Positions 10,035 to 28,800 of a stretch of 30,373 bases of DNA are shown in pieces. The position numbers were made by a program, and so were the translations under genes. The DNA lies in the IMG/VR virus record IMGVR_UViG_3300036940_000489, positions 1-30,373 of that record. One strand, written 5' to 3'. The DNA comes from a virus (Duplodnaviria > Caudoviricetes). Below the pieces are notes generated by a model. That model did no database searches, had not been told where the DNA came from, and saw nothing but the letters and a program-made list of their open reading frames with translations. Each line of letters begins with the position of its first letter. Position 1 is the stretch's first letter.

Positions 10035-10115
10035 GTCATTGCGGGCCTGCCCGCCCTTCGGGAGCAGGCGGGCCTGCCCGCCCTTCGGGAGCAGGCGGGC
10101 CTGCAAAGCAATCTC
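10035..10115. repeat. Composite palindromic element: GTCATTGCG...AAGCAATCTC shell containing tandem 27-bp GC-rich hairpin units
   Basis: GCGGGCCTGCCCGCCCTTCGGGAGCAG at 10041-10067 and 10068-10094, plus a partial copy at 10095-10104. Confidence 0.85.
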
Positions 10116-10131
10116 AGAAACAACGAGCATT

Positions 10132-10640
10132 CTACCTGCTACTTTCCAGGCCAATCAAAAGCCACTCAAGAGCCTCTTCATAGGTTGCCTTTGATACCAT
10201 ATCCTTTCGGGTAATATCACCTTTCGCCAGCGCGTATATTATTTCTCTGATTGTTTCGATTGGGCTTTTCGAAAAAAGTCCTTCATCACCTTCATCTTCG
10301 CAATCATTGCGGAGCTGTATTCGAGTAGTATATTGCTCAACTCTTTCAGCAGTTCGCTGTTGCAGAAAAAAAAATCACTCACAATCTTTAGCACTTCCAT
10401 TCCGTCCAGTTTATTGACATTGATATTTTCACTGCCTGTGAGAATGATTTTAAAGAATGCATAAACCATATCGTTTTTATTTAAAAAACTGACAATAGAG
10501 AAGATTCCCCCCGCCATTGCTTTCTGAACGTCCTCTAAGGCCAACTGTTTCTCTTCCAGCAGTTCAAAAAATTGTAGCCATTGTTCCAGTGTCAGACTGG
10601 ACTGCTTGACTTCGTGGCCTTGAATTTTATAAGTCTTCAT
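10132..10640 (-). CDS. Tail assembly chaperone, -1 frameshifted long form (gpGT-like, ~169 aa)
   Basis: Slippery T9 run (GAT TTT TTT TTC) at 10366-10374; the -1 frame stays open to TAG at 10132 and encodes ...IYALAKGDITRKDMVSKATYEEALEWLL... Confidence 0.75.
10239..10640 (-). CDS. Tail assembly chaperone (lambda gpG-like, 133 aa)
   Basis: Upstream of tape measure; DFFF slippery motif. Confidence 0.8.
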   Translation of the reverse strand: MKTYKIQGHEVKQSSLTLEQWLQFFELLEEKQLALEDVQKAMAGGIFSIVSFLNKNDMVYAFFKIILTGSENINVNKLDGMEVLKIVSDFFFCNSELLKELSNILLEYSSAMIAKMKVMKDFFRKAQSKQSEK

Positions 10641-11053
10641 CAGTAGCCCTTTCTCATCAGATCAGCCAAAGCATTGGCTCGTTGGCCTACCTGTTTCGCC
10701 CATCGGCTATTTAACATTTCATCAGCCGCACCGTCGAAATCTTCTTGCTCAACCTTTGCAATCATATTGCGAAAGCCCCGCAAACCCTTTGCACCCAGGT
10801 TAAAAACCATCTCAATGAGGACTTCCTGCCTGATTTCAGACAACTCCCGGAAATTGCTAAATATCTTAGAGGCTTCTACTTCACACCGGTTTACATCAGT
10901 CAGCAGCATTCTCTCCGCCTCTTCTTCTGTGATTCCCACATCCTCCAGATTGCGCCCCACACCAATAGTCAGTTTCCCTGCAGTACAGCGATAGGGTTTC
11001 AGTCTTACTCCCTCATGGGCTTTGATTCGGTCAAAGATTCTTTCATAATTCAT
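10640..11053 (-). CDS. Endolysin, T4-type lysozyme (GH24)
   Basis: HEGVRLKPYRCTAGKLTIGVGRNL, MVFNLG, SRWAKQVGQRA motifs. Confidence 0.95.
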   Translation of the reverse strand: MNYERIFDRIKAHEGVRLKPYRCTAGKLTIGVGRNLEDVGITEEEAERMLLTDVNRCEVEASKIFSNFRELSEIRQEVLIEMVFNLGAKGLRGFRNMIAKVEQEDFDGAADEMLNSRWAKQVGQRANALADLMRKGY

Positions 11054-11083
11054 TTTTACCCCTACGGATTTCCTTACACATCT

Positions 11084-11113
11084 ATCCGTGTTTATCCGCG
11101 TTAATCTGTGGCT
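11084..11113. repeat. 10-bp periodic repeat (ATCCGTGTTT ATCCGCGTTA ATCTGTGGCT)
   Basis: Intergenic; same family at 22399, 23366 and 24844. Confidence 0.85.
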
Positions 11114-11122
11114 CTCTTTTGG

Positions 11123-11560
11123 TTATACTTCTGGTTCTTTTACAACAACATTCTTATTATCAGACCGCAAGCCGACTACAAATTTATTAGTCATTTTCAC
11201 GATCAGTGTGCTCAGTTTATCCAACAATACGGACAACAGGCGCAAAACGCCCTCAATAGAGATTATGAGAATAGGTTCGAGCAACTTTTCATAAATCCAG
11301 TTTACCACAGGTGTTTGATTGATCCACACCGTGAAGCCCACACCCCAGTTGTAAGCCACCAGGCCAGCGCCACTGATAAACTTATCCAGAGATGATTCCA
11401 TTCGTGCTTCAGCCTTATCCAGCCACCGGGTAAACCTCTCCGGAATTTTATATTTAGACAAAACCCAGTTAAACACGAGAAAAACAAGTCCGGACATACC
11501 CATCACCTGTACTTTTCCCAGCGCGTTATTACTGATAAAATTGACAATGCTACCAAACAT
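11123..11560 (-). CDS. Membrane protein in lysis cassette (holin/spanin-like accessory)
   Basis: 145 aa with hydrophobic segments, AAGGAG SD, between candidate holin and lysozyme. Confidence 0.6.
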   Translation of the reverse strand: MFGSIVNFISNNALGKVQVMGMSGLVFLVFNWVLSKYKIPERFTRWLDKAEARMESSLDKFISGAGLVAYNWGVGFTVWINQTPVVNWIYEKLLEPILIISIEGVLRLLSVLLDKLSTLIVKMTNKFVVGLRSDNKNVVVKEPEV

Positions 11561-11570
11561 GATAGTCTCC

Positions 11571-11741
11571 TTATTTTTTTCTTAATTTTTTTATCCACCA
11601 GATCATAGAGCAGACAGCCACCACAGTACTACAAAAAAGAGTAATACCCTGCAAAATCACAGCAGCGTGAAAAAACAGATAGTTGACAACACTTGCCAGC
11701 ACACCGGCAGCCGTTACACCCACTTCTTTTAGACGCTCCAT
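11571..11741 (-). CDS. Putative holin (56 aa; not in ORF track)
   Basis: MERLKEVGVTAAGVLASVVNYLFFHAAVILQGITLFCSTVVAVCSMIWWIKKLRKK: two hydrophobic segments, basic tail, AGGTGG SD, fills the gap between flanking genes. Confidence 0.75.
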   Translation of the reverse strand: MERLKEVGVTAAGVLASVVNYLFFHAAVILQGITLFCSTVVAVCSMIWWIKKLRKK

Positions 11742-11752
11742 AAAAAGACCAC

Positions 11753-12157
11753 CTACACAATTTCCGTCACACTATAGGGTCGCCCACCGCTATAATCCAC
11801 CTTCTCAAGACTGATTTTAGTCTTCAGCCCGTCCAGCGAAGTTGTGATAGTGTTAGGCGTATCCACCACCAGTTTCCTTCCTTTTGCCGTAAACGAAATT
11901 TCCACACTCGCCACGCCGCCATCTTCTATTTCATCTTCCCTGGCAGTATCCAGTTCTGATAGTGTGATGTCACAGGTCAGTTTTTTTGCATAGACATCCT
12001 TACTGCCATCTTCCAGGTCTTCCGATAGATTTTCAGTACTCAGCGATATAGCATCCTTTAGCCTGCCAGTTATAGGAGTAGTCAGCACAGATTCACCCGT
12101 GCTGTCGAGAAAATCCACACTAAAAGGCCCATTCATCACTTTTGTTTTATCTACCAT
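11753..12157 (-). CDS. Major tail tube protein (putative)
   Basis: 134 aa, acidic, beta-rich, GGAG SD, between capsid and chaperone/tape measure. Confidence 0.65.
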   Translation of the reverse strand: MVDKTKVMNGPFSVDFLDSTGESVLTTPITGRLKDAISLSTENLSEDLEDGSKDVYAKKLTCDITLSELDTAREDEIEDGGVASVEISFTAKGRKLVVDTPNTITTSLDGLKTKISLEKVDYSGGRPYSVTEIV

Positions 12158-12177
12158 AATTTTTTCTCCATTTTAAT

Positions 12178-12214
12178 GGTTGACGGCCACAAAAAATTGA
12201 TGACCGACAACCAA
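12178..12214 (-). terminator. Hairpin after capsid gene (attenuator or mRNA stabiliser)
   Basis: Minus-strand RNA UGGUUGUCGGUCAU / GUGGCCGUCAACCA pairs 13 of 14 with G-U pairs; no long U tail. Confidence 0.55.
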
Positions 12215-12218
12215 ATGT

Positions 12219-13115
12219 TTATAAATAAAGTCCGGCGATCCGGTTCACAGCATGTTTGCGGTACTTCACCGGAGTACCATACAGTTCGATCATACCCTCC
12301 TGCTTCACCATACTGCCGCGAATTTCCAGGTCAGTTACATCCACACCTACAGTAGTGTGATAGCACAGATCGTCCAGTTCGGCAAACTTGGATAGAAAAA
12401 GACTCGTACATTTTCCCGTAGCCGCGCCCTGGTCTTCGGTAAAAGTGATACCATTATTTCGAATGGCATACATAGGCCGTCCGGCATACTTCAGAATAGG
12501 AGCACCAAACTCATTCTTATCCCAGGTCAGTGCGTGCCGTTCCCGCGCCTTCTCCTGCATCCACGCCCACATTAGCGGAGCCATTGATAGCGCGTCAGGG
12601 TCTGTCTCGGCGATTCTCATATCCAAATGCCGAAAAAACCATTTCTCACCCTCACTGGTAGAGAGATCAACGCCATCAGTCTCGGCAAAAGTTTCATCTT
12701 CACCGGCCAGTACAGACAGTCCTTTGATTTTGCCATCGGCGCCTGTACCATTATGAACCAGAGCCTCCAGTTCTTTGGCAAACCGGCGGGCAACACCCAG
12801 CATTTTGCTCTGCATTAGCGCCGGAATATCATAATGCGTCTGCAATTCCAGTTTATCGATTGTCACCGGCAGCCCGTGCATTTTGATTGCCTCACTCTGC
12901 GGAGTTTTGTTCAGGCTCTCTTTTGTTCCATATTCATTGGCCTTTGTTCGCGCCTGCATACTCCCGCTTGGATCATCGGTCTCTTTGTATGCCACGGCCT
13001 CTGCAGAGGTACGAAAAAACTCCAACTCTGCCAAAAATGGTGATTCCCTCAGGATTTCATTGGCCACAGCAGATACATTATCGCCGCTTCCTACAGATAT
13101 TCTGTCAAGTTTCAT
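12219..13115 (-). CDS. Major capsid protein (HK97 fold, putative)
   Basis: 298 aa after protease/scaffold; ESPFLAELEF, HNGTG...IKGL, AVNRIAG motifs; AAGGAG SD. Confidence 0.85.
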   Translation of the reverse strand: MKLDRISVGSGDNVSAVANEILRESPFLAELEFFRTSAEAVAYKETDDPSGSMQARTKANEYGTKESLNKTPQSEAIKMHGLPVTIDKLELQTHYDIPALMQSKMLGVARRFAKELEALVHNGTGADGKIKGLSVLAGEDETFAETDGVDLSTSEGEKWFFRHLDMRIAETDPDALSMAPLMWAWMQEKARERHALTWDKNEFGAPILKYAGRPMYAIRNNGITFTEDQGAATGKCTSLFLSKFAELDDLCYHTTVGVDVTDLEIRGSMVKQEGMIELYGTPVKYRKHAVNRIAGLYL

Positions 13116-13127
13116 AGTAAAAACTCC

Positions 13128-13547
13128 TTACTTTTGATATTTATTCCGGTAATAATTCTGCAGTTTTTCTGCATTGCTCGCCGGAAGTTTATTGTTAGCC
13201 GGTTCTCCCACCGGTTGAGCCAGCGTGTTGGCCGGTATCTTATCCAGTCGCTCACAATTGCCGGCAAAATCATCATTGAGGGCCTTTGCCCATACAGGTT
13301 TTTCATCTTCAGTGATTTTGCCCTGTGCCACTGCACTATTCAGTTTTTCCTGGATTTTTGTCTCACGCTCAGCAGTTATTGACTTTTCCAGGTTTACGAT
13401 CCGTTTTTCCAGAGCCGTCTCAGCCTCAACCTTAGCCTCAGCCTCAGCCTCAGCCTCAGCCTTTAATTCCTTCACCCTGTTCAGGACTTCCTCCTCTGTA
13501 GCCGCTTCAGGCATATCCAGAAGGTTCCTCAGTTTTTCAATATCCAT
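13128..13547 (-). CDS. Nested in-frame scaffold protein (Mu gpZ-like, 139 aa)
   Basis: Internal ACAGGAGTAAAAAAG-ATG (MDIEKLRNLLDMPEAATEEEV) at the protease/scaffold boundary. Confidence 0.65.
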   Translation of the reverse strand: MDIEKLRNLLDMPEAATEEEVLNRVKELKAEAEAEAEAKVEAETALEKRIVNLEKSITAERETKIQEKLNSAVAQGKITEDEKPVWAKALNDDFAGNCERLDKIPANTLAQPVGEPANNKLPASNAEKLQNYYRNKYQK

Positions 13548-14126
13548 CTTTTTTACTCCTGTCTTCCCCAATCCTTCGTGAGGGATAAGGGGATGTTCTA
13601 TTTGGTTTAGAAATGCTGCATAATTCTTAGCCCTGTCCACCTGTTTAATTATCTCAGTGGCAAAGCCCTTTTCCACCGCCTGATCAGCGGTCATATAGGT
13701 TTCCACACTCATTAGGTCATTGATCTCATTATCACTCATACTTACATGAGATTGATAAGCCTTCACTATATTATCTTTGATCATCTTCATTTCTGACTGG
13801 ACTTTGGCAAAATAATCCTCATCCCCACCGGCAAAAGTCCAGGGATTATGGATCATCACCATAGCCGATTCATTGATATAGATATTATTGCCCGCCATAG
13901 CGATCACGCTTGCTATACTGGCAGCAATGCCATCGATATAAACATCCACATCATATGCCCTTAGCAGATTATAGATAGCCAGCCCGTCAAAAACATTTCC
14001 CCCGTTACTGCTTATATGCAGATCAAAAGAGGTTTTACCCTCATTTCGAAAACTCTCTACCCGCCCGGCTATTGAGCGAAGAAGGAAATCATCAACAAAG
14101 TCATAAAGAAACAGTTTAGGTCTCAT
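13128..14126 (-). CDS. ClpP-like (S14) prohead protease fused to scaffold domain
   Basis: ISSNGGNVFDG, DGIAASIAS, MIHNP motifs; charged coiled-coil C-terminus. Confidence 0.92.
   Translation of the reverse strand: MRPKLFLYDFVDDFLLRSIAGRVESFRNEGKTSFDLHISSNGGNVFDGLAIYNLLRAYDVDVYIDGIAASIASVIAMAGNNIYINESAMVMIHNPWTFAGGDEDYFAKVQSEMKMIKDNIVKAYQSHVSMSDNEINDLMSVETYMTADQAVEKGFATEIIKQVDRAKNYAAFLNQIEHPLIPHEGLGKTGVKKMDIEKLRNLLDMPEAATEEEVLNRVKELKAEAEAEAEAKVEAETALEKRIVNLEKSITAERETKIQEKLNSAVAQGKITEDEKPVWAKALNDDFAGNCERLDKIPANTLAQPVGEPANNKLPASNAEKLQNYYRNKYQK
13419..13460. repeat. Hexamer tandem repeat CT(C/T)A(G/A)C x7, in frame (AEAEAEAEAKVEAE)
   Basis: Direct reading; same family at 21717-21786. Confidence 0.85.
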
Positions 14127-14982: not shown

Positions 14983-15146
14983 GATATTGGCCGGCCACCG
15001 ACAAACGATAACCGGCCCAAGAGGTTCTTAATGTCAAATCAAGAGAAAACTAAACCAAAATAATCCATCCTCCAGGACATATACGGATATATCCTTTTTG
15101 TGAAAAAAAATATTTTTATACTACCATAGAAACCAAAGGATTTACT
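14983..15146. promoter_or_regulatory. Divergent late promoter region
   Basis: 164-bp gap between divergent structural operons; tandem GGACATATAC/GGATATATCC at 15075-15094; leader hairpin at 14989-15017. Confidence 0.6.
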
Positions 15147-15611
15147 ATGAAGGACATAAAAGACAAAAAAGAACTGGCCCGCTATCTCTATTTCAGCCGG
15201 AGACTCGACAACACCACCATCATCACCACCACAGGCGTTACAAAAACATCCCTGTACCGGTGGATAAAGGAGGAAAACTGGGACAAACTACGCCAGGCAA
15301 ACACTGTTAGTCCCATGGACACGGCCAACAAACTAAGAGAACATATTGTCTGGATAGAACAAAACGCTCGAGAACTCAACCGGCCGCTTAATGGAAAAGA
15401 GATAGACGGCATTATAAAACTGCAAAACATTATCGAGAGAGTATCAAAAAAGAGCGCCTATATTGATCATGCCTTTACAGTAATGACAGAGTTTGTTATT
15501 CATCTGAAGTCAGCAAAACCTGACCTCTTTGACCAGCTATCAAACACAATCAGTATCTTTATGGAAAACCTGACCAGAAATTTCCAAAAGGATATAAACG
15601 CCGATGAATGA
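15147..15611 (+). CDS. Terminase small subunit-like HTH protein
   Basis: KKELARYLYF...GVTKTSLYRWIKEENWD HTH; upstream of TerL; AAGGA SD. Confidence 0.78.
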   Translation: MKDIKDKKELARYLYFSRRLDNTTIITTTGVTKTSLYRWIKEENWDKLRQANTVSPMDTANKLREHIVWIEQNARELNRPLNGKEIDGIIKLQNIIERVSKKSAYIDHAFTVMTEFVIHLKSAKPDLFDQLSNTISIFMENLTRNFQKDINADE

Positions 15612-15717
15612 CAGGAATCCTTGCAAAGTACTTGCGAAGCCTTGCATTTTAATTATCTTGCAAAACAAAGGGGAATAGTTGGGTCAGACATTATAGCCGC
15701 TTAAAAAGGATATTAGC

Positions 15718-17268
15718 ATGAATACCAAAATACATAAAAAACTGGAAGAATTTCAGGAATTTCTATCCAAAGAGACCACTCCCTTTTCATTAGACGGGCC
15801 AACTCTGGAAGACAGAAACACTCTGGGCCGGCAGGATGTATTTAAGTTTGGTACACTTTATACACCCCACTACTTCACACTGCCGCCGGCACAATTTCAC
15901 CAGGAACTGTTTACCATGACCGAGCACAGAAAAAAGCACCTGTTTGTAGTTACAGGGCCGCGGGAATTCGGCAAATCTATTCTTCTCAGAGTGGCAAAAC
16001 TCCGCATGGTACTCTATGGATTACGGCACTATATATTCAAAATCTCCGAAACCCTGACCCTTGCCAGGAACGACATAGACTTCCTGGTTAGCGAACTCTT
16101 GTTCAACTCACGAATAAAAGGTGACTTCAAAATAAAAATACTAAAAAATGATGATGACGAAACCCGCCTCCGGATCACAAATAAATTCACCGGCCGGTCG
16201 CACTTCGTAAAGTTGGAACCCAAATCCTACGGTACTCCCGTAGTAGGCTCTATCTTCATGCAATACCGTCCTGATTATGCAGAAATAGATGACTTCGAAA
16301 ACACAAAAACCGCCAGAAACCAGAAAATAGGTGAAAAAAAGGTTGACTGGGTAATTGAAGAATTATATCTCGCCGTCAGCAAAGCCGCCCCTATTGTATG
16401 GGTGGGAAACAACCACGCCAAAACATCAGCCATCAATCAGGCTATCGAAAATGAATGTAAAAAAATTCCCTATGGAAGTTTTCTCCAGTTTGACAAGCGG
16501 TCAAAAACAGCCCACAAATATTCCGCTATCCAAAAAACAAAAAACAAACGTTACTCACTATGGCCCGAGAAAATGACCGTCGCGGAACTGGATCAAGTGA
16601 AAAAAGATATAGGTTCACGTAGGTTTGCAGCACAGATGCAACAACAGCCCATAGAAGAAGGTAAATTCTTCAAACCGGAAGACGTCCATCGCTACGACAA
16701 ACTACCGGACAATTTAGAGTGGATAGCCACCATAGACCAGTCCCTGGGAAAAGCAAAAACATCAGATTACAAAGCCATCATAATCATGGCCGCCGATACC
16801 CGCTATTTTTATGTAGTGAACGCATTCCTGAGACAGACCACACTCAGGGCAATGGTGGACGGCGCCTATTACTTTTATGATATGTATGCAAAAAAAGGCC
16901 TTAGAGTATTCAAAATAGAAAACAACTTTGGCCAATATACAGAAATCAGCAAAAGAGACTTTGACGAAGGGGCAAAAAGACACAAATTTCACCTGCCAAT
17001 TTCGCCATTTCTAAACACCATTAACAAAGAAATTAGAATAGAGGGATTGCAACCCCTTTTTGAAAACGGACGCATACTCTTTCCGGAGCGGCTAAACAAA
17101 GACCTACAGGAACTATATGACCAACTACTCGGCTATCCCGACGCGCCCCATGATGACGGCCCCGACGCTATGGAAGCAGCCCAGATATTCCTCCAAAAAA
17201 GAATTCGCCAGCGCGGAGCAAAAAACTACATATCACTCAAAAAAAGAAGGTACAAAACCAGGAGATAA
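15718..17268 (+). CDS. terL: Terminase large subunit
   Basis: Walker A-like GPREFGKS, Walker B RPDYAEIDDFE, nuclease motifs ATIDQS...SDY and HDDGPDA. Confidence 0.93.
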   Translation: MNTKIHKKLEEFQEFLSKETTPFSLDGPTLEDRNTLGRQDVFKFGTLYTPHYFTLPPAQFHQELFTMTEHRKKHLFVVTGPREFGKSILLRVAKLRMVLYGLRHYIFKISETLTLARNDIDFLVSELLFNSRIKGDFKIKILKNDDDETRLRITNKFTGRSHFVKLEPKSYGTPVVGSIFMQYRPDYAEIDDFENTKTARNQKIGEKKVDWVIEELYLAVSKAAPIVWVGNNHAKTSAINQAIENECKKIPYGSFLQFDKRSKTAHKYSAIQKTKNKRYSLWPEKMTVAELDQVKKDIGSRRFAAQMQQQPIEEGKFFKPEDVHRYDKLPDNLEWIATIDQSLGKAKTSDYKAIIIMAADTRYFYVVNAFLRQTTLRAMVDGAYYFYDMYAKKGLRVFKIENNFGQYTEISKRDFDEGAKRHKFHLPISPFLNTINKEIRIEGLQPLFENGRILFPERLNKDLQELYDQLLGYPDAPHDDGPDAMEAAQIFLQKRIRQRGAKNYISLKKRRYKTRR

Positions 17269-17272
17269 AAAA

Positions 17273-18514
17273 ATGAAAAACCCCTTTAAAAAACTTATCA
17301 AAAAAAACGCCAGCAGAGCCATAACTATACCGAGAAAAAAATCATCACCCTACTTTTCTGTAGTCAGCCCCGATGAGTTCCGGTCCGCATTCAACGCCGC
17401 TGCACATGGACGCCCGGAAAAACTTTATGGAATCATGGATTTTTTCCTAAAAGTGGACGGCCACCTTGCAGGAGTACTTCAGAGCCGGATCGCTGCTGTA
17501 TTAAATAGTGGCGGAAACATTGTCACTGATGACAAAAAAAAGAAAGCCATTATAAGGAAAATGTTTGAAAACTTTGGTCTTCACGACATGATGAAAGAAC
17601 TTCTTGAAGCCCCTTATTTCGGACTGCGGGCCATCGATATTATATGGGGAGATATGCAGATTGATAAAAAAAACTACTTCGCGCCAATAGAATGGAACAT
17701 TGTTCCACACCAGTATATCGAATCAAAAAAAATAAACCACAATGACACCCATACAACCCTACATATCTTTGACCGCCCTGTTCAGGACTACCAGACCGGC
17801 AAACTATTGATTTCCATTCACGGGCATATATCCCGGTATGATGACATAGATTTTACCACCCTGGGAAAAGGCCTGGGAGCCCTTCGGTATTCCATATATA
17901 AATTTTATGATGTGGAGGACTGGGCCGCTTTCAACGAAGTCTATGCCATGCCTCTCAGACTGGGAAAATATTCCCAAAACGCCGGAAAAGAAGAAATTGC
18001 CACACTCACAAGCGCGGTAAAAGAAATGGGAACCGACGCCTCCGCCATTATTTCCGAAGAGACCGATATAACCTTTCCGGAAGTCAACCGCGCAAACTCC
18101 ACGGATTCCTATGAACGGTTTGAGCGGGCCTGTGACCAGAGCATATCTACCGCCCTGCTTTCAGAATCCAGGACAACAAACGATGGCAAAAATGGCACCT
18201 ATGGCAGTATGAAGACAGCCAATGGTATCAGGGTGGACGTAGCTGCTGGCGATGCAAAAAAAGCCACCAAATTAATTAACACACAGCTTATGACACCCTT
18301 TTTGAGACACAACTTTTCCGGAAACACCGAGGCCAGTATATCCTTCCCTGTCAAGCCCCATATTAGCCCGGAGCAACTCGCCGCCATATATTCCAATATC
18401 TATAACATGGGACTGGATATGTCAAAAAAAGACCTGTACGAAAAATTTGACCTGGCAATGCCGGAAGATGAAGAAGATACCCTCTCCGGCGGCACGGGAC
18501 TATTAGGACTATAA
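17273..18514 (+). CDS. Portal protein (Mu gp29/DUF935-like)
   Basis: DGHLAGVLQSR, DWAAFNEVYAMPLRLGKY motifs; start moved to ATG 17273 (AGGAG SD) from the track's 17117. Confidence 0.9.
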   Translation: MKNPFKKLIKKNASRAITIPRKKSSPYFSVVSPDEFRSAFNAAAHGRPEKLYGIMDFFLKVDGHLAGVLQSRIAAVLNSGGNIVTDDKKKKAIIRKMFENFGLHDMMKELLEAPYFGLRAIDIIWGDMQIDKKNYFAPIEWNIVPHQYIESKKINHNDTHTTLHIFDRPVQDYQTGKLLISIHGHISRYDDIDFTTLGKGLGALRYSIYKFYDVEDWAAFNEVYAMPLRLGKYSQNAGKEEIATLTSAVKEMGTDASAIISEETDITFPEVNRANSTDSYERFERACDQSISTALLSESRTTNDGKNGTYGSMKTANGIRVDVAAGDAKKATKLINTQLMTPFLRHNFSGNTEASISFPVKPHISPEQLAAIYSNIYNMGLDMSKKDLYEKFDLAMPEDEEDTLSGGTGLLGL

Positions 18515-20094: not shown

Positions 20095-21431
20095 TGTTTC
20101 ACCTTTATTATTTCGTTGTTATTTATGATCCATAGTTTTTTATTATAGCGCACACACCATATTTTTAGTTCTCTCACTACTCGTTCCAGCGATATATCAT
20201 CACAGGATTGTAAATTTAGTAGATAATCATCTGACTGATAATTCTGTCCTTTCTTTTTATACCGAATCCTGTTTAAAATTGTGCTTTCTTTCATTTTTTG
20301 TGGAGTTTTAACCTCTATCAACCTCTCTTTCCAGATCAAATCCACATCTCCGCCGCGATAGTTTTTCACATCCGCGACAAACTCAACCACATCACCGGTT
20401 ATTTCACATAACTTTTGTCCGGCCGCAAACTCTTCATCATAGATTTTTCTCTCGTTCTTCAGAGCCTTATCACGTTTAAAAGTCCAGTTCGAATGAACAG
20501 CCACAAACCCCGTATCATTGCTTTGAGCATTAAAAAAAAACATTTCACCCGTCTTTTTCATCTCGTCCTGTACTTCCAGCCTTTCTATTGCCTCTTCACT
20601 GGTCACCACCTTGATTATACGGTAGCCTGTATCTATAGTTTTCACACTGTCACCCCGCACAGGCTTTATATCATCATCCCACGCCGGATTTACACCCAGC
20701 AGACTGTGAATACACCGATAGCCCCCCTTAAAGGTCATCACAGGGTCAAGCATACCATTACTCATCATCTCCAGCTGCTTCCTGGAAAAAGTCTTATTGA
20801 TACAGAGCCGGCAAAAATAGCGCGAATGCTCCAAAATCTCACCATAATAATAAAAATAATCAAGCCCGGCGTCTTCAGCAACTTTATTTCGTGCTTCCTG
20901 GGCAATAGCAGAAACAGCCATTTTACTATTTGTATAAGCATGATGTTTCGGCAGCCCGGCTTTTTTCTCCAGGTTTTTCCGTAGTCGCATACTATCAAGC
21001 AGACCCGATTCTATCTCTTTAATCGTTTCCTTAATAATACCCTGCTTCATCGCCTTATTTGCCACGCGAATATTATCAGAAAAAAGTTTTGATATCCGCG
21101 CCACCTCTTTACGTTTCAGAGTTTGCTGATACAGATTATCCAGCCTTGTATTGACACGGTCTTTATAAAAAGCCTGGGTTTTCTGTATATTATCTCTCAC
21201 CAGGTTCATTATCTGTCGCTGCCAGGCCTTTTGATTTTTCACTGCCGAATCGGCCAGGGCCTTATTTACCAGAGATTCAATGTCTTCCGTATTAGTATTA
21301 TCATCTATCATCGATAGTACACCATCCACCACATGCTGAAAATACCTATTTACAGAAGACAGATTATCACACCTGGATAGGATAGCAGCGCACTCTTTTT
21401 CCAGTTTTTCTATATCATTTTTCAGGGACAT
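20091..21431 (-). CDS. MuF-like minor head protein with C-terminal PD-(D/E)xK toxin-like domain
   Basis: YYYG...SRYFC...GGYRCIHSL (MuF Cys/His motif); ~190-aa extension with GGDVDLIW...IEVKTP. Confidence 0.75.
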   Translation of the reverse strand: MSLKNDIEKLEKECAAILSRCDNLSSVNRYFQHVVDGVLSMIDDNTNTEDIESLVNKALADSAVKNQKAWQRQIMNLVRDNIQKTQAFYKDRVNTRLDNLYQQTLKRKEVARISKLFSDNIRVANKAMKQGIIKETIKEIESGLLDSMRLRKNLEKKAGLPKHHAYTNSKMAVSAIAQEARNKVAEDAGLDYFYYYGEILEHSRYFCRLCINKTFSRKQLEMMSNGMLDPVMTFKGGYRCIHSLLGVNPAWDDDIKPVRGDSVKTIDTGYRIIKVVTSEEAIERLEVQDEMKKTGEMFFFNAQSNDTGFVAVHSNWTFKRDKALKNERKIYDEEFAAGQKLCEITGDVVEFVADVKNYRGGDVDLIWKERLIEVKTPQKMKESTILNRIRYKKKGQNYQSDDYLLNLQSCDDISLERVVRELKIWCVRYNKKLWIINNNEIIKVKQ

Positions 21432-21618
21432 CTTTTATCTTTCTATAGTTTTTACCCTCAATCGCCACAATCTCCTCACAGGTACGGAAGGTCTTTCGGC
21501 AGTTTGCATTGTCACACACACGCACACGAATGATAAAATTATTCCAGTTATCAGTTTTCAGTACCCGTGAGCCGCTCCCGCACTCCGGGCATTCGATCCC
21601 CACTCTCTTATCTGCCAT
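21415..21618 (-). CDS. Ogr/Delta-like zinc-finger, probable late transcription activator
   Basis: CPECG...R.RVCDNANCRKTFRT.E. Confidence 0.7.
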   Translation of the reverse strand: MADKRVGIECPECGSGSRVLKTDNWNNFIIRVRVCDNANCRKTFRTCEEIVAIEGKNYRKIKDVPEK

Positions 21619-21620
21619 TA

Positions 21621-22385
21621 TTACTCCTTATCCCCATAGTTAAAACTATCCAGAGCCTTATAAAAAGCCCTCAAAGACCGATCCAGCCGCTCTATTTCAC
21701 CCAGTACAGACGAGACCTCAGCCTCAGCCTCAACCTCAGCCTCAACCTTAACCTCAGCCTCAACCTTAACCTCAGCCTCAGCCTCATAAACATACATTGT
21801 CAGAAACAAGGTTTTTTCATTCTCCGGTAAATCCTTGAGTATCTCATAAATCTTTTGAAATCTACTGCCTACCAATTTCATCCCCCCGTCATTACGAGGC
21901 GTAATCGCCGAAGCAATCCCACACCCCTCTTTAGCAAACTCCCTATACATAGCCTTGCAACACTTTTGCAACAGCATTGCATTTAGAGTTATTATACAGG
22001 TTTGTGCGCTTTTTCTTCCCAGGTTTTTATACCCCTTTTTCACACCATACTTATTATGTACAAACCTGTCAAGTCGCTCTTCCCACTCATTCACATTTCG
22101 GCATACTCTCTGCCAGAGCACCACGATCTTATCTAATTGTTCAGCAGTAGCAACCTCCGAGGTCTGGATAGACCTCCGCGGTTTACTATCTGCATGATTG
22201 TAGCCTTTCGGTTTCACACTTTTCCGAAAAGTTTTGATTAAATCTTCTATCTGTATTACGCTCAGGCCGGACATCGATTCCACCTGAAATACTTCGCTAG
22301 CCAGGTCGCTCAGTTCCTCATGTCCATATCCGGCCTTCAGTGCCACAGCGTGCAACTCACGCATTCTTTTATTGCGCAGTCTCAC
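21621..22385 (-). CDS. GemA/gp16-like (DUF1018) protein with repeat-rich C-terminal extension
   Basis: LHAVALKAG...ESMSGLS...ATAEQLDKIVVLW...LDRFV...AQTCIITLNAM; GGGAG SD, GTG start. Confidence 0.8.
   Translation of the reverse strand: MRLRNKRMRELHAVALKAGYGHEELSDLASEVFQVESMSGLSVIQIEDLIKTFRKSVKPKGYNHADSKPRRSIQTSEVATAEQLDKIVVLWQRVCRNVNEWEERLDRFVHNKYGVKKGYKNLGRKSAQTCIITLNAMLLQKCCKAMYREFAKEGCGIASAITPRNDGGMKLVGSRFQKIYEILKDLPENEKTLFLTMYVYEAEAEVKVEAEVKVEAEVEAEAEVSSVLGEIERLDRSLRAFYKALDSFNYGDKE
21717..21786. repeat. Hexamer tandem repeat x11+, in frame (EAEAEVKVEAEVKVEAEVEAEAE)
   Basis: CTCAGC/CTCAAC/CTTAAC units. Confidence 0.88.
21887..21938. repeat. Palindromic element copy, in frame (GIASAITPRND)
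   Basis: CGTCATTACGAGGCGTAATCGCCGAAGCAATCCCAC; 35/36 identical to 23078-23113. Confidence 0.88.
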
Positions 22386-22398
22386 CTGTCTCCCTCAC

Positions 22399-22428
22399 AT
22401 CCACATTTATCCGCGTTAATCTGCGGCA
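22399..22428. repeat. 10-bp periodic repeat upstream of GemA-like SD
   Basis: ATCCACATTT ATCCGCGTTA ATCTGCGGCA. Confidence 0.8.
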
Positions 22429-22442
22429 GGCATTGTTTTCCA

Positions 22443-22643
22443 CTATCTTTTCTCCTTATATTCACAGATACTGCATTTATAAAGGCTAAAATTATGTCCG
22501 TGACCTTCATACTGCATATCATGGTCACAGATACTCTGAAAATGCCTGATACTGCGATCTATTGTCCTCATGCTTTCTTTCAGTCTGTCTCTCTCCTCCA
22601 TCAGGCCCAGTATTGCAGCCCTGATTTTTGCTTCCTTATTCAT
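22443..22643 (-). CDS. Small coiled-coil/Zn-ribbon protein
   Basis: Start at ATG 22643 (GGAGGG SD); CDH...CSIC C-terminus. Confidence 0.65.
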   Translation of the reverse strand: MNKEAKIRAAILGLMEERDRLKESMRTIDRSIRHFQSICDHDMQYEGHGHNFSLYKCSICEYKEKR

Positions 22644-22902
22644 TACAAATTCCCTCCATAGCCGGTTCTGCAATTATTAACGGCTGACTTGATTGATATT
22701 CATCTTTTGACCAGAACTTCTCTTTAGCAAACAATGTAATCACATCGTCAAAATCAGTACCTGTATAGACTTCAAAAACGCCCCTCTTTTCGACATAAAG
22801 TTTACCTGATTTCCAGTCATCGCGTAATTTTTTCAGATCAAACGAGCGCCTTATCCTTTTATACATAATAACACAACAATTTTTCATCACTTCACTTTCC
22901 AT
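22636..22902 (-). CDS. Hypothetical protein
   Basis: 88 aa, overlaps both neighbours in the operon; start uncertain. Confidence 0.6.
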   Translation of the reverse strand: MESEVMKNCCVIMYKRIRRSFDLKKLRDDWKSGKLYVEKRGVFEVYTGTDFDDVITLFAKEKFWSKDEYQSSQPLIIAEPAMEGICNE

Positions 22903-23588
22903 TTCCCTGATTTGATTTTGCCCAGTCTCATCTTTAGCAGCGCCTTCTCGCCCCGCTCCGCTACAGACATCCGGCTATTATCCATCTTCTCCAGTTCCGC
23001 CAGCCGCGCCTCATCTTTTTCCAGCCACTCCGGTATATTGCTGTCATTGTCCCGATATATCGGGATACCCGCTTTTTCGTCATTGCGAGGCGTAATCGCC
23101 GAAGCAATCCCACCCTCTTTACCAAAACAACCATCACCAAACAACACCTTCCCAACCGCCTTCTCCAGTCCGTTCCGCTCCGCCTTTTCTTTCTCATATT
23201 CCTCCGCCAGTTTTTCCAGCCTGATTCGCTCCCAGCGACACACCTTACTATCTGTTCCCTGAAGAAAGTAGTTGAGCGACTTTATTTGTGGCCTCTCGTT
23301 TATCATATTCTCCATATCCTTCACCAAAAATCCGACACCCAGAGTGTGACAATATCGCGCTATTTCTTTGCGTTGATCCGCGTTAATCCGCGTCAATCCG
23401 CGGCCACCTTTCAACTCATCAAACTTGGAAACCACACGGTTGACAGCATTGTCATATCGCTTCATCAGCGCGTAGCCATCCTTATTCCACTGCTGCTGAG
23501 CGTATTTTTTCACAACACCCCAGTCGTGCCGCTTAATGGCCCACACAATCTTTTCCGGTAGTTTCAGTTTTACTGCTAGTTCCTTCAT
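22887..23588 (-). CDS. Hypothetical early protein carrying several in-frame repeat insertions
   Basis: 233 aa; contains repeat-encoded peptides GLTRINADQR, GIASAITPRND and GIPIYRD. Confidence 0.75.
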   Translation of the reverse strand: MKELAVKLKLPEKIVWAIKRHDWGVVKKYAQQQWNKDGYALMKRYDNAVNRVVSKFDELKGGRGLTRINADQRKEIARYCHTLGVGFLVKDMENMINERPQIKSLNYFLQGTDSKVCRWERIRLEKLAEEYEKEKAERNGLEKAVGKVLFGDGCFGKEGGIASAITPRNDEKAGIPIYRDNDSNIPEWLEKDEARLAELEKMDNSRMSVAERGEKALLKMRLGKIKSGKWKVK

Positions 23589-23621
23589 AGTATTATCTCT
23601 CTGTGTTCTCTGTGGCTGGAA

Positions 23622-24008
23622 TTACTCCTCCACCAACTCTATGTTTTCGTGACGGCCCTTATATTGGCTTTTCAGAGTACGAAAAGAACCAAATGTAGGC
23701 ACAATGAATTCCATTTTATCTAAAAGACCCATTCTCTTAGCCTTTCGTTTACCAAGAGATTTAATTATTCTCTTGTGGTGTGAGTAGAGATTCGTTGACT
23801 TTTTACAATAATACTTCTCTGCAATTCCACAATCTCCATCTTCAGTAAACCATTCGCCTTTAATCTCACCATTGACAAAAATAGTATAGACCAATTTCAA
23901 TTTGTGGCGACCCAATTTAATAGTAATCACATCGTCACCAATCTTGATTTTTCCACTACCACCTTTATTGACGAATTCTTCTAACTTTTTCCAATCTTCA
24001 TTTGTCAT
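23622..24008 (-). CDS. Hypothetical early protein
   Basis: 128 aa, AAGGAGGT SD. Confidence 0.8.
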   Translation of the reverse strand: MTNEDWKKLEEFVNKGGSGKIKIGDDVITIKLGRHKLKLVYTIFVNGEIKGEWFTEDGDCGIAEKYYCKKSTNLYSHHKRIIKSLGKRKAKRMGLLDKMEFIVPTFGSFRTLKSQYKGRHENIELVEE

Positions 24009-24021
24009 TTTTCACCTCCTT

Positions 24022-24100
24022 GCCATGCGTAGTCCCGATTTATCGGGACAAAGCATGGGCTTTCAACTTTTCACTTTCAACTTTTCACTTTAGATCACTT
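24022..24100. repeat. Hairpin element (with nested GTCCCGATTTATCGGGAC palindrome) plus heptamer repeats
   Basis: Related copies at 25298-25334, 26304-26354 and 28156-28184. Confidence 0.85.
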
Positions 24101-24105
24101 CTTAG

Positions 24106-24158
24106 AACCGGTGGCGGGATTCGAACCCGCTTGTCATACCCACGCTGTATCACCGGTT
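24106..24158 (-). ncRNA. tRNA-like mini-RNA (acceptor stem, T arm, one short hairpin)
   Basis: AACCGGTG ATAC AGCGTGG GTAT GACAA GCGGG TTCGAAT CCCGC CACCGGTT; canonical T arm, perfect 8-bp closing stem, no anticodon arm, no encoded CCA. Confidence 0.55.
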
Positions 24159-24177
24159 ATCCAGTCAGTTAAGACAT

Positions 24178-24828
24178 CTATATAAGGGAGGTATTCACAC
24201 CAATAGCCGAAAAATTCACCTCCAGCGGCTCCCAGCCCCTGCTTTGGTCTTGATCCGGTTTGTACCAGAAGCGGTAATACACACGGGAACCCACGATGAT
24301 GATACTGTCAGCGATCAAATCCATAGCCTCCCGCCATGGCTCATCATCAAACTTATGCCGCCGTAATCCCAATAATTTTCGAGCATTCACATTACCCTTT
24401 TTATCAGTCTTAAAGGCGTCATCAACGATGGTTTTTAGTTTATGGGCGCCGGTCTTACTACCCTTGCTCCACATGCTGAAACACTCGCCGATTTTCTGAC
24501 GGGCCACCTGTAGTTTCTCATCGAAATCAACCCGCTCATTCACATTGATTTCTATCTTCAGAGTGTGCGAAAAATCATAGATCGTAGCATTACCCTTCCA
24601 CTCCTCGTTATATTTCTCAGCCACCCGTTCTAAGTAGCTATCAATTATCTTAGCAATCTCCGCCTTTTCCTTTTTTGTATTCCGGTGAATGCGAAAAGCC
24701 CGTGTAAACACCATGTTTACAGTTTTATCGCGGTCTCTGTCACCTTTTGATACATAACGGTAAGGCACCATCAACCCCTGAGGGTCGAGATAACACCTTA
24801 CACCATCTACATTATCACTTACAGCCAT
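24178..24828 (-). CDS. DUF3164 family protein
   Basis: DPQG.MVP, KGN.T.YDF, FDEKLQVA, DAF.TDKKGNVN...LLGLRR, W.EAMD.IADS motifs; start moved to ATG 24828 (AAAGGAAG SD). Confidence 0.88.
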   Translation of the reverse strand: MAVSDNVDGVRCYLDPQGLMVPYRYVSKGDRDRDKTVNMVFTRAFRIHRNTKKEKAEIAKIIDSYLERVAEKYNEEWKGNATIYDFSHTLKIEINVNERVDFDEKLQVARQKIGECFSMWSKGSKTGAHKLKTIVDDAFKTDKKGNVNARKLLGLRRHKFDDEPWREAMDLIADSIIIVGSRVYYRFWYKPDQDQSRGWEPLEVNFSAIGVNTSLI

Positions 24829-24841
24829 AATACTTCCTTTC

Positions 24842-25036
24842 TTATCCGTGTTGATCCGCGTTAATCTGCGGCTCATCTTCTATCATTACATCATTCATAT
24901 TTATCAACTTACGTCCACAATCAGGACAGCGGCCAAAGTAATCGTGTATGCCTTTACAGTTCGGGCACACATAGACACCATACATTCGGCGCATTTCCTC
25001 ATCAGTACGCTCGATATATCTATCTACAGATTCCAT
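24842..25036 (-). CDS. Small Zn-ribbon protein
   Basis: CPNC...CPDC; its C-terminus EPQINADQHG is encoded by the 10-bp periodic repeat at 24844-24873. Confidence 0.65.
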   Translation of the reverse strand: MESVDRYIERTDEEMRRMYGVYVCPNCKGIHDYFGRCPDCGRKLINMNDVMIEDEPQINADQHG

Positions 25037-25282
25037 TTACCCCCCCCCCAGTTCTAATTGTTGAAACACCTGTGGTTTACTTCTGCCAAACCGCCTCTCT
25101 ACACAACCCTTATAGATTCTATATGCCACACCATCAGGATAGTATGGATTAGCCTGATTAGCCAAAATTATCGCCTCCTTCACAGACAAGCCCTCCTTAC
25201 CTTTCAGGGCTTCCCTGATTACGCTGCGGCTATTTTGCTCAATTATCCTTATTTCACTCTCAGATACATAATCAACTTTCAT
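25037..25282 (-). CDS. Hypothetical early protein
   Basis: 81 aa, AAGGAGG SD. Confidence 0.72.
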   Translation of the reverse strand: MKVDYVSESEIRIIEQNSRSVIREALKGKEGLSVKEAIILANQANPYYPDGVAYRIYKGCVERRFGRSKPQVFQQLELGGG

Positions 25283-25389
25283 AATAATTCCTCCTTACCC
25301 TGCGTAGTCCCGATTTATTGGGACGAAGCATGGGTCTTATATTCGTTTTATTCGTTTCATTCTTGGAAAAATTCCGTGGTCAATAATAC

Positions 25390-26289
25390 TCACGCCACAC
25401 TCCCACGCGTCATCATATCAGCGTCTATAATGTCCTTTTCCATTACATCGCCATTAGCCAGAAACCGCGCCATTTTCACCAGATACGCCACCTTACGAAT
25501 AGACACATGACGGCAAAAACCAACCAGTTTCTTAATAGCACCTTTATCATATACACCATACGCCTGGGCAACGCTGACAATATCATTCTTAGGGACTTCA
25601 ATATTGAACCGCCGCTTAATCGGGATTCTATCGTCCACCTCTTCCAGTACATGCCCATATCGCTCATCCACCAGCCGGTCATAGACAGAGTGAGTACCCA
25701 CCAGGATAATGGCGCACCCGGTTTGGTCGTGGACGTGTTTTAGTTCCTGGTAGCTATCATTCACCAGTTTATGAGCCTCATCTATCAGGATAGCCCTGTC
25801 AGCACCTTTTAGTCTGTTGATAATAGCCTGACGTCCGGCTCTTGCAGTACCCCTTAGTTCCTTTCCCGCTACCTTCCAATACAGGTCAGACACGATACCC
25901 TTGATACTCTTACCATCCACACTGGCGGTCACGAGAATCACACCCGGATTAGACTGCTGATAAGCCTCACATGACTTAGTCTTGCCGATACCAGCCGGCC
26001 CCGTGATCAGGCCCATCACCCGCATATTATGCACCAGCCGAATTGTTCTCATCACATTATCCATCACAGAAGTATTAACTATAATATCACTCCACGCGTC
26101 ACCCCGTTCTGACACTCTGGATAGATAAGAGCCTATCTTATTCTCCAGATTATCCAGATTTCCGTTATACTTGCCATTCACATACCGGCTCACAGCCGTA
26201 TCAGATACACCTATGGCCGTGGCTACTGTCACCAGGCTTTTTTCCGCTACCATCTGCCTCACTTCATTTTGATACTTGTAATTTGACAT
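25390..26289 (-). CDS. MuB-like AAA+ transposition ATPase
   Basis: N-terminal HTH (VATAIGVSDTAVSRYVNGKY), Walker A GPAGIGKT, Walker B ILIDEAH; AAGGAGGT SD. Confidence 0.95.
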   Translation of the reverse strand: MSNYKYQNEVRQMVAEKSLVTVATAIGVSDTAVSRYVNGKYNGNLDNLENKIGSYLSRVSERGDAWSDIIVNTSVMDNVMRTIRLVHNMRVMGLITGPAGIGKTKSCEAYQQSNPGVILVTASVDGKSIKGIVSDLYWKVAGKELRGTARAGRQAIINRLKGADRAILIDEAHKLVNDSYQELKHVHDQTGCAIILVGTHSVYDRLVDERYGHVLEEVDDRIPIKRRFNIEVPKNDIVSVAQAYGVYDKGAIKKLVGFCRHVSIRKVAYLVKMARFLANGDVMEKDIIDADMMTRGSVA

Positions 26290-26352
26290 TTTACTACCTC
26301 CTTGCCCTGCGAAGCATGGGCTTTTAACTTTTCACTTTAGATCACTTATCAC

Positions 26353-28800
26353 TTAAATCCCTATCCTATCTTGAGCCGCAGCCAACCGATCCCAATAACT
26401 CTCATCATCAGATTCAACCTCAAGCCGTTGGCTCATACGCTCGTGAACATCACTCATTCTGTCGATATTCTCTTTATATTTTTCTGATAGTGATTTTTCT
26501 GTGTTTTCCGAACCTTTGTGGCGAATAAACTCCACCATCTCATAAATCTCACCAGTCTCTTTATTGTACTTCACCTTCGGTGGTTCGTGTATATCTGCCC
26601 GTTGCATCAAATCCATTGGCTCCAGTGACTTACCAAGATTTTCTTCAACACGTCTGTCAATATCCTCTTTCATTTTCTTGATTTCTTTCTCGCGATGCCG
26701 TTTTTCTTCCTGGTGTTTACCCACCAATTCACCACCGTCGAGATAAGAAACCTTACCATATCTATATTTTGGTACTTCGCCGATCAACGCGCCGCTTGGC
26801 TCATAAAGCCAGATTTTACTGTCATCATTAGCATTATATTTGATAAAAAACTCTTTACCTGCCGGTAATTGACTGAGCCAGTTATCCCAGTAATATCTGT
26901 ATTTATCTCTGCCACGTCTGTCTTTACCATCTTTACCGAATTGAATAAGGCCATTTTTACGGACAACATAGGGTTTATCAGACACCGGCAATAGACAGTG
27001 ACGCAAGTCTTCATACGGCATTCGTTTTTTAGGATGATCTTCAAACCATTCGTCCCACATCTCATTAGGTGATTTACTGCCATTAGGTGCCCAGTTATTA
27101 GCAATATCAAAGAGATAATGATTCATAGTCTCGATCAACTCTTCACGACTGGGAAATTTGCCTTTACTCTTATCCACAATCCATTTATCAGGACGCTTAC
27201 GGAGCAACTCAGCAGTATAACCATTGAAATGGCTCTTATCGTGTACTCGCGCCATATCCCGGAATTTTCTTTCGATATATTTTGCTTTGGCATTATGAAC
27301 AATTGAGAAATAGACATTTTCCGGCCCGTGGATTTGGGCAATTGGTGAAAGCAGTTTTTCCTCCACATCATCTTTACTGGCCAGTTTCGAACGCCCGGCT
27401 TTTAGATAATCACTACCATTATCCATTTGCACCACAGTTCCCACATGGTCACTATCAGCCTCCAGGAGACCGTCAAGTACAGACTGTACATTAAAGTCTT
27501 CGGGATAAGTCACACTGAGAAATTTACCTGTAGCCCCATCCATCCATGCTTGTACTTTCAGTCTCATTCCAGCCTTACCAGCACCAAAACTCACATCTAT
27601 GATACGACCATCAGCCACATACAAATCACCCGGATTCAGACTGTCAGGATCACGAAGAATTGTTGGGAAACCATAGTCATCAAAAGCCTTATGCCCTTCG
27701 CGGAGCCTGATAGTAAAATCCTGGGGATGAGATTTGATCCAGCGATAGACCGTCACCCTGGCCGGCACATTCCAGCCCTTTTCCTTAGCCCGCCAGAGCA
27801 GGTTCTGATAGCAATGGTCAAAATCCCGCTTCTCCTCAGTAAAATAGATAGAGGAGAGATAGTCCTTAGCCCCCTGGCTAAAGGCTGCCTTTCCTTTACC
27901 TCTATTACTATATTGACGAACAAGCCCGTCTTTGCCACCTTTTTTGAGATCACCATACCACCGGTGCAGACTGCTTTTACTCACCTTCAGGTCATCGCCG
28001 TGATCCATATTCCACAGCCTGACAAAATCACTATCAGCCTTATCTTTATTTTTTCGCTTGCTAAATTTTCTGTATCTCTGCCATTCCTCAAGACACCGCT
28101 CAATCATATCCACCCGAATACGCTCATCCATATTCGCCCGCGCATATGCACCCGCGCCCTGCGTAGCCAAAGGCGAAGCATGGGTAAAACCCTCTGCGCC
28201 ATCTGTGCCTCTGTGGCTATTTATCTTGCCTATTGAAGCCAGAAACCGCACCTTCACATCTTCATCCAGGTTATCCAACCCATAAAATTTCTTCAATCCA
28301 CCATTATCAGGAACCTGGATAAATGACCAATGATTGCGCTTTGCTTTAATAATCACACTATTCTTTTTTACGCTTAAAAGTGTCACCACCTTTGAAGCAC
28401 TAAGGTAATATGCGTTATTATGATAAATAATTGATTTATCGCCGTTTAAATACTCAAAACCAGTGTCACCACCTTTGTCACCACCTTGAGAATTATTTTC
28501 CTTTGAAAATTTCACACAATTTGGGATATTACCTTGTAGAGACAGGGCACGCTCTGTCTTAGACAAAACAGAGGTTAGATTGTCACTGCTTTTTGATAAG
28601 ATATGAGAAGATGGATATTCCTTTATTAAGTCGAGGAACCGCTCACGCTGGAGATATTGCACAGGCACCACGGCACACCTGCCGCCCTTGCCTTTGCCCT
28701 TCACATACACGATATACCCCAGTTTCTTATACCGGTTATATATCGTGCGACGGGTCGAGTACAGCGCCTGAGCCAGATCAGTTACCGGGATAGCTTCCAA
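26353..28800 (-). CDS. MuA-like DDE transposase
   Basis: Catalytic motifs YVADG, QMDNGSDY, AKAKYIERKF; Mu-type N-terminal DNA-binding domains; start placed at TTG 28800 (GGGAGG SD 6 nt upstream) rather than 28827. Confidence 0.95.
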   Translation of the reverse strand: MEAIPVTDLAQALYSTRRTIYNRYKKLGYIVYVKGKGKGGRCAVVPVQYLQRERFLDLIKEYPSSHILSKSSDNLTSVLSKTERALSLQGNIPNCVKFSKENNSQGGDKGGDTGFEYLNGDKSIIYHNNAYYLSASKVVTLLSVKKNSVIIKAKRNHWSFIQVPDNGGLKKFYGLDNLDEDVKVRFLASIGKINSHRGTDGAEGFTHASPLATQGAGAYARANMDERIRVDMIERCLEEWQRYRKFSKRKNKDKADSDFVRLWNMDHGDDLKVSKSSLHRWYGDLKKGGKDGLVRQYSNRGKGKAAFSQGAKDYLSSIYFTEEKRDFDHCYQNLLWRAKEKGWNVPARVTVYRWIKSHPQDFTIRLREGHKAFDDYGFPTILRDPDSLNPGDLYVADGRIIDVSFGAGKAGMRLKVQAWMDGATGKFLSVTYPEDFNVQSVLDGLLEADSDHVGTVVQMDNGSDYLKAGRSKLASKDDVEEKLLSPIAQIHGPENVYFSIVHNAKAKYIERKFRDMARVHDKSHFNGYTAELLRKRPDKWIVDKSKGKFPSREELIETMNHYLFDIANNWAPNGSKSPNEMWDEWFEDHPKKRMPYEDLRHCLLPVSDKPYVVRKNGLIQFGKDGKDRRGRDKYRYYWDNWLSQLPAGKEFFIKYNANDDSKIWLYEPSGALIGEVPKYRYGKVSYLDGGELVGKHQEEKRHREKEIKKMKEDIDRRVEENLGKSLEPMDLMQRADIHEPPKVKYNKETGEIYEMVEFIRHKGSENTEKSLSEKYKENIDRMSDVHERMSQRLEVESDDESYWDRLAAAQDRIGI

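Follow-up and report, generated by a model that had tools for sequence, protein, structure and literature searches.

The short repeats and where they lie

The stretch analysed here, called the window throughout, is the whole of IMGVR_UViG_3300036940_000489, a single virus record of 30,373 bases, and represents a Mu-like transposable phage in which short repeats of several families are scattered over genes and spacers. Family matches among the 39 open reading frames (ORFs) scanned comprise MuA (26353-28827), MuB (25390-26289), GemA, the Mu portal, gp36, a ClpP-type head protease and an endolysin; most genes lie on the minus strand, and plus-strand genes occupy 15147-19045. Inverted repeats of 33 nucleotides (nt) lie close to both genome ends (31-63 and 30161-30193) and, because of these and because the longest contig of a relative measures 30,595 bases, the genome is probably near complete, notwithstanding a CheckV completeness estimate of 48%.

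We distinguish arrays of a 10-mer or 9-mer (family A), hairpins of two kinds (B and C), hexamer arrays (D), heptamer arrays (E), a further hairpin (F), and two palindromes, G and H, which occur inside B and C, respectively. The family patterns matched 22 copies (four A 10-mer, three A 9-mer, three B, four C, two D, three heptamer, one F and two nested G). A preliminary description of this DNA had counted at least six families; we count at least seven kinds, besides heptamer-like remains flanking B at 10010-10034, an H palindrome not enclosed in a C (23051), and a degenerate motif with an 8/9-mer at 18520-18566. All the repeats it listed exist, to within 1-10 bases, although the heptamer array near 22886 proved weak, with about two units, and escaped the heptamer pattern, which matched at 24062, 26323 and 26341. 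The sites are listed below, together with their state in two related phage loci, L001, which spans 17910-28743 at about 90% identity, and L492, which spans 6911-13550 at about 92%, and in runs X4 to X6; all are read on the plus strand.

10010-10143, plus: spacer patch with heptamer-like remains and a B shell (10035-10113) around two G palindromes of 27 nt in tandem; L492 has a 9-mer A array instead
11083-11114, plus: A 10-mer array 5' of the endolysin gene; common to L492
13419-13462, plus: D hexamer array within the head protease gene (13128-14126, minus), in frame; in L492 it encloses a 39-nt C-type hairpin, a net gain of 15 residues
18517-18566, plus: plus-strand operon spacer; L001 is 59 nt longer, with a G palindrome and the 9-mer array expanded (also runs X4 and X5)
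19049-19086, plus: F hairpin of the DUF559-arm type; missing from L001, where the adjacent accessory gene is replaced too
21715-21787, plus: D hexamer array, in frame near the GemA C terminus; in L001 the array is shorter and encloses a C-type hairpin
21879-21942, plus: 64-nt patch containing B, in frame in GemA; its place is taken by 22 nt of non-repeat sequence in L001 and run X4
22398-22427, plus: A 10-mer array, intergenic
22880-22905, plus: weak heptamer array at a stop/start overlap
23044-23113, plus: H palindrome (23051) and B (23079), in frame in the gene of a 233-residue protein; 27 nt shorter in L001, X4 and X6
23366-23404, plus: A 10-mer array, in frame in the same gene; the homologue P0004 has a stretch of nearly equal length
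23596-23620, plus: A 9-mer array that takes up most of a 33-nt spacer
24015-24100, plus: module of a Shine-Dalgarno (SD)-like CCTCCTT, a C hairpin with H loop and an E heptamer array
24843-24874, plus: A 10-mer array forming the last codons of a 64-residue ORF (24842-25036)
25290-25382, plus: module of an SD-like site, a C hairpin with H loop and a 9-mer array; the H loop is missing in L001
26296-26356, plus: module upstream of MuB with an SD-like site, a loop-less C and an E array; the H loop is present in L001
28154-28237, plus: C hairpin and A 9-mer array, in frame in the variable MuA linker; L001 has C with H loop and an F-type hairpin, 10 residues longer

Nesting reaches three levels in the 10035 spacer, where heptamers enclose B and B encloses the two G. 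The tight patterns gave a mean of 0-0.04 matches in 200 dinucleotide shuffles, which shows non-randomness rather than family limits, the patterns having been derived from the copies themselves. The family patterns found no copy at 1-10000, in keeping with the preliminary description, and on the minus strand no copy of any non-palindromic family; the low GC of a tail-fibre-like module at 299-4725 (0.36 against 0.43) may partly account for the repeat-free left end. Coding repeats of 54 nt at 9661-9856, near the N terminus of a tape-measure-like gene, were set aside as belonging to that gene. In 33 unrelated phage loci (362 kb, chosen as protease homologues) the A, B, D, E and F patterns all scored zero, and looser patterns gave 11 matches for C and four for G. 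Degenerate heptamer-like motifs also occur at 12180-12218 and 14985-15017, the former being an inverted pair 3' of the capsid gene whose loop differs in L492.

Alleles in relatives

Alignment with the related phages, proposed earlier as a check, revealed both empty and alternative alleles. Against L001, nine of the 11 indel clusters fall on repeats, which cover 7.7% of the 9,230 aligned bases (19049-20652, two non-homologous segments with the 380 nt between them, was excluded, and one interval was defined from the repeats of L001 itself), and the mismatch rate is 13.9% within repeats and 6.8% outside. Two sites exchange one family for another between unchanged flanks: at 10009-10143, B with G in the window stands against the 9-mer A array of L492, with agreeing joints in X4 and X6, and at 28186-28237, in the MuA linker, the 9-mer A array stands against the F-type hairpin of L001. 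Elsewhere a repeat faces unrelated bases (22 of them opposite the GemA B patch in L001 and X4) or nothing (F at 19049 in L001), or is altered: L001 carries G and the longer array at 18525; B at 23079 differs by 27 nt from L001, and likewise from X4 and X6; and the C loops differ from L001 at all four sites, the window lacking one at 26304 and L001 at 25298. Both D arrays contain a C-type hairpin in the relatives (L001 at 21715-21787, L492 at 13419-13462); these variants are absent from the window and so point to an outside donor. Most A copies are common to the relatives, and run X1, which may be the source, matches 22800-26500 without differences.

Net coding changes at the repeats are +6, +42, +27, -30 and -45 nt, all five multiples of three, in agreement with the claim that coding copies keep the frame. 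The companion claim, that the repeats add peptides to proteins, applies to B, which is predicted to add 14 residues to GemA and nine to the 233-residue protein relative to close homologues, but not to the A array at 23366, which replaces a stretch of near-equal length. The distant homologue P0004 (44% identity) has such a stretch there and a 25-residue gap near the B site, and P0006 (51% identity) has a shorter MuA linker; neither carries a repeat peptide. This indicates that the repeats are derived and that some overwrite instead of adding.

One neighbouring exchange involves more than a repeat. In L001 (9160-9330), X4 and X5 the accessory gene at 19140-19484 and F give way to 179 nt that include a long palindrome of attC-like appearance; a DUF2513 gene adjoins this swapped region (19049-19540).

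Occurrence in bacterial chromosomes

The links of motifs to gene families named in the preliminary description were followed in 101 bacterial genomes, other than that of the host, from the phylum of G001, a Deltaproteobacteria metagenome-assembled genome. The top-scoring locus was taken per genome, and windows within 200 nt of the gene (near) were compared with windows 900-1100 nt away (far). Three of the four links hold. GxxExxY genes (34/101 genomes) lie between inverted 9/10-mer arms, four-helix-bundle genes (61/101) between inverted heptamer arms, and DUF559 genes (43/101) between inverted F hairpins. The A type was found near GxxExxY genes at 19 of 29 loci (one partial locus of 30 having been dropped) and far from them at three of 23; period 7 near four-helix-bundle genes at 20/30, far 1/24; and F near DUF559 genes at 30/30, far 0/19. 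Counts across families were low (A type 0, F at most 1/30), the largest being period 7 at five of 30 DUF559 loci. Local alignment, which is independent of the patterns, placed all seven A copies nearest GxxExxY flanks, all three E copies nearest four-helix flanks and F nearest DUF559 flanks; B, C and D gave no convincing match to the cassette flanks. GxxExxY (PF13366) appears among families of unknown function in PMC3424549.

The fourth link, to GIY-YIG genes, is weak here: CGTC hairpins occur near six of 30 such genes (far 0/23), but the B type at just one (L335). At L334, L336, L338, L339 and L350 a tRNA gene and a partial copy of it flank a small GIY-YIG gene. B itself is chromosomal in 18 of 61 genomes, with up to 71 copies on both strands, its loop often occupied by H- or G-like hairpins. 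C was found in one genome of the species collection and in 86 metagenome stretches, mostly between ordinary genes; a looser pattern again matched G001 alone among 151 genomes of its phylum. A short-period array lies within 50 nt of C in 20 of 81 distinct contexts, against 0/76 controls. Among 87 cellular C loci there were one GxxExxY and one weak DUF559 match. Eleven further four-helix loci and 30 Y1 loci yielded no partner for C or D; at the Y1 loci, mostly IS200-like by top match, C (1), G (0), H (0), D (0) and B-type (3) were no more frequent than in the other sets.

C abuts a tRNA-like 3' end in eight contexts; its end coincides with the 3' CCA of tRNA- or tmRNA-like genes at L062, L075, L084, L089, L095, L112 and L118, and at L118 it apparently lies within a tRNA-like gene.

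The earlier statement that the phage encodes no cognate mobiliser was borne out for the five candidate families, the record having no TIGR04256, PF05635, PF04480, PF01541 or PF01797 match. A portal query of metagenome contigs returned no relative, and the Atlas no host taxon; a non-phage contig with an A-type array, present in runs X1, X4 and X6, is a weak hint of a shared host.

Orientation of the copies

Copies within each family had been said to share one orientation, and counting each site once over the three phages (A 8, B 3, C 6, D 2, E 3, F 2, G 2) we found a single orientation per family, with no oriented family on the minus strand. The chance of such uniformity is about 2e-6 if the copies are independent, which not all of them are. 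On the plus strand A and E correspond to the downstream arm of their cassettes, in all seven A and all three E copies. G has the same plus-strand sense whether the operon runs on minus (10046) or on plus (L001 at 18525); this constancy, at one or two sites, hints at a genome-strand rule. Orientation linked to transcription was rejected as a general rule, cellular loci with co-directional flanks being divided 12 to 14 for C and 5 to 3 for B on rough ORF calls.

Origin of the repeats

Three families, A, E and F, bracket GxxExxY, four-helix-bundle and DUF559 genes in chromosomes as inverted pairs, and the phage record lacks these genes. We think it probable that the repeats are small selfish DNAs, single arms or hairpins of host gene-plus-arm elements, written in trans into the phage while it is chromosomal, preferably at existing repeats, and filtered by selection. 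The small GxxExxY, four-helix-bundle and DUF559 proteins would each recognise their own arms; patches of 20-135 nt would be inserted or overwritten, preferably where repeats already sit; loops would be lost through slippage and some modules copied within the phage; and selection would eliminate all but the copies lying in spacers, gene ends and in-frame linkers. A single-stranded DNA step during directional replication would fit the one-strand polarity. A stronger form of this proposal, which we regard as rather unlikely, would make the host system itself strand-polarised, overwriting 20-135-nt patches with arms so that unrelated families alternate at the same site and strand whatever the direction of transcription, with the three proteins as specificity factors and the phage as a record of interchangeable linker peptides and ribosome-binding modules.

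Several observations weigh against writing in trans by host elements. The phylum was chosen solely because G001 holds a C copy, and the patterns were composed after inspection of the flanks of the loci, themselves the top-scoring one per genome. No GIY-YIG match lies beside B at 30 cellular or 149 viral loci; profiles of four gene families gave C no partner gene over 87 cellular and 115 viral loci, and D has none at 69 viral or six cellular loci. Against L492 just two of seven internal indel clusters fall on listed repeats, and indel enrichment at repeats is inflated because spacers tolerate indels anyway. There is no clear target duplication of the kind that, with terminal inverted repeats, marks a MITE: the candidates are a 4-nt AGCC repeat at the 39-nt L492 insertion and CG at the C loops, and three larger events are replacements without duplication. 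At most sites the alignments may be read in either direction of change, and the record may be incomplete.

Some of the evidence would instead suit spread inside the phage. Each family may have entered once or twice by ordinary recombination with the host, gene conversion, slippage and hairpin deletion doing the rest with no mobiliser. The B copies at 21888 and 23079 have about 50 nt in common, 3' flank included, and the two C+E modules, at 24015 and 26296, agree in both junctions and in the SD-like site. Deletion between short direct repeats, CG in the case of C, could account for the 27-nt B difference and for the empty C forms; and uniform orientation follows naturally from copying. Copying of this kind plausibly explains part of the pattern. 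As a full account we consider it unlikely, because unrelated families swap at sites without shared repeat homology, some variants of the relatives occur nowhere in the window, seven or more families within 20 kb require many separate entries, and unrelated phage loci lack these families. If whole cassettes of a gene with two arms had been inserted and later deleted, leaving one arm as a scar, the match of the phage arms to those of intact cassettes would be accounted for; singlets have been argued to be decayed remnants in the case of REPINs, as outlined in PMC3116915, and the inverted heptamer-like pair at 12180-12218 might represent a doublet without its gene. Yet no remnant of a cassette gene is present, all seven A and three E copies represent one arm and lie on one strand, where a mixture is expected, and copies in MuA and GemA would require a lethal intermediate, so that we hold such scars to be improbable.

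The preliminary description had the phage retaining the repeats as linkers, ribosome-binding modules and terminators, and a version of this in which they are old functional parts, or products of low-complexity slippage, and not mobile DNA has some points in its favour. The end of C overlaps an SD-like AAGGAGG in all three intergenic copies, F is terminator-like on the minus strand (the sole such family), D could arise as a Glu-Ala codon repeat, and most A copies are shared with relatives. A promoter scan stayed at chance level (42 versus 39.6). Phages 90% identical carry empty and swapped alleles, the mismatch rate is higher inside the repeats than outside, and the identical grammar recurs in unrelated bacteria. 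The allele comparisons contradict it as a general account, and we judge it very improbable as such, although it could hold for D or for the SD overlap. Because relatives do without a repeat or use another family, any function is at most secondary, and the copies are better read as tolerated than as retained.

Comparison with known systems

The phage repeats resemble CGTC-tagged repetitive extragenic palindromes (REPs) and Rickettsia palindromic elements, which, as outlined in PMC3733652, are dispersed, 30-40 nt long and sometimes in frame, several families coexisting. B has the CGTC head, for which TGTC or CCTC may stand in such REPs, at 21887 and 23078 (AGTC in the 10035 copy) and an unpaired CCA tail (GCAATC-CCA) at 21888 and 23079 (TCA at 10035). 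It differs in combining a short outer stem with an inner hairpin, in place of the 8-9-bp stem with a 4-5-nt loop given there, some CGTC families in that source allowing other loops; moreover, the phage copies are singlets, and the A, D and E tandem arrays are not REPs. As in Rickettsia-type intragenic palindromes, copies stand in frame within intact genes, and empty orthologues exist.

In the Ssn GIY-YIG systems, as far as PMC11893778 sets them out, a small single-domain gene is flanked by its own oriented repeat, of which many solo copies occur, a likeness to the present case; what is presented there for SsnA is strand-specific cleavage of single-stranded DNA, not repeat insertion. Such cutting is the best precedent for the polarity. 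As a further point against the proposal above, the published pattern of the Ssn-related motif (SRM), the hairpin that goes with these nucleases, has no match in the window, a longer loop included, and was found at four of 30 GIY-YIG loci; the phage also lacks an ssn gene, and A, E and F go with other protein families. REPINs (PMC3116915) are short repeats that are not autonomous, and an enzyme of the host has been proposed to mobilise them in trans, which makes them the other precedent for the mechanism proposed here. Unlike the REPIN-RAYT system, the phage has copies singly on one strand, not as inverted doublets, and no Y1 transposase. Elhai et al. reportedly described, in 2008, very short mobile repeats in cyanobacteria that belong to several families, nest within one another and enter genes, no mobiliser being known; sequences and hosts differ, and those repeats may overlap with the present finding.

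S23p intervening sequences of 23S rRNA, in which an ORF lies within a long hairpin, share the four-helix-bundle gene family (PMC4990558), but the phage has no corresponding ORF, inverted pair or rRNA, no PF05635 and no Rfam match. The heptamer repeats of Xanthomonas and Nostoc are abundant intergenic arrays according to the abstract of PMC4692102; the abstracts of these two papers draw no link between heptamers and the gene. A, E and F carry the arm sequence of the GxxExxY, four-helix and DUF559 cassettes, the difference being that the phage has solo arms and no gene between inverted arms.

In-frame palindromes, coexisting REP families and gene-flanking hairpins are already in print (PMC3733652, PMC11893778). 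Searches of an open literature library turned up no paper that, by its title or abstract, connects arrays with the GxxExxY, four-helix or DUF559 genes they flank, or reports such repeat turnover in a phage. The novelty lies in a phage that combines many families with matched alleles, swaps between families and strand polarity. For the study of how solo short repeats spread, this phage offers matched empty, filled and swapped alleles within 30 kb; the exact boundaries of several families allow substrates for binding, cutting and insertion assays to be read off directly. The comparisons suggest that a transposable phage may gain or lose short peptides in MuA, GemA and the head protease from host repeats, and it may also ferry such repeats between hosts.

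Other features of the genome

Neither Rfam nor ARAGORN found anything in the window, nor did they call a tRNA-like piece at 24101-24160, on the minus strand, that has an acceptor-like stem and a T-arm GGTTCGAATCC; it adjoins a C+E module and is conserved in L001. The 446-residue gene at 19897-21431 has no Pfam, PHROG or NCBIfam match; its C-terminal part and the small gene downstream are non-homologous in L001, and the product looks like a head-morphogenesis protein of MuF type whose nuclease-like tip can be swapped, accompanied by an immunity gene. L492 has a 64-nt deletion at 8045-8108, off the repeats, near the 3' end of the tape-measure-like gene. Sites of 23 nt occur at both ends (9-53 and 30161-30257) and once within the MuA gene (28506-28528) and are likely to be transposase binding sites.

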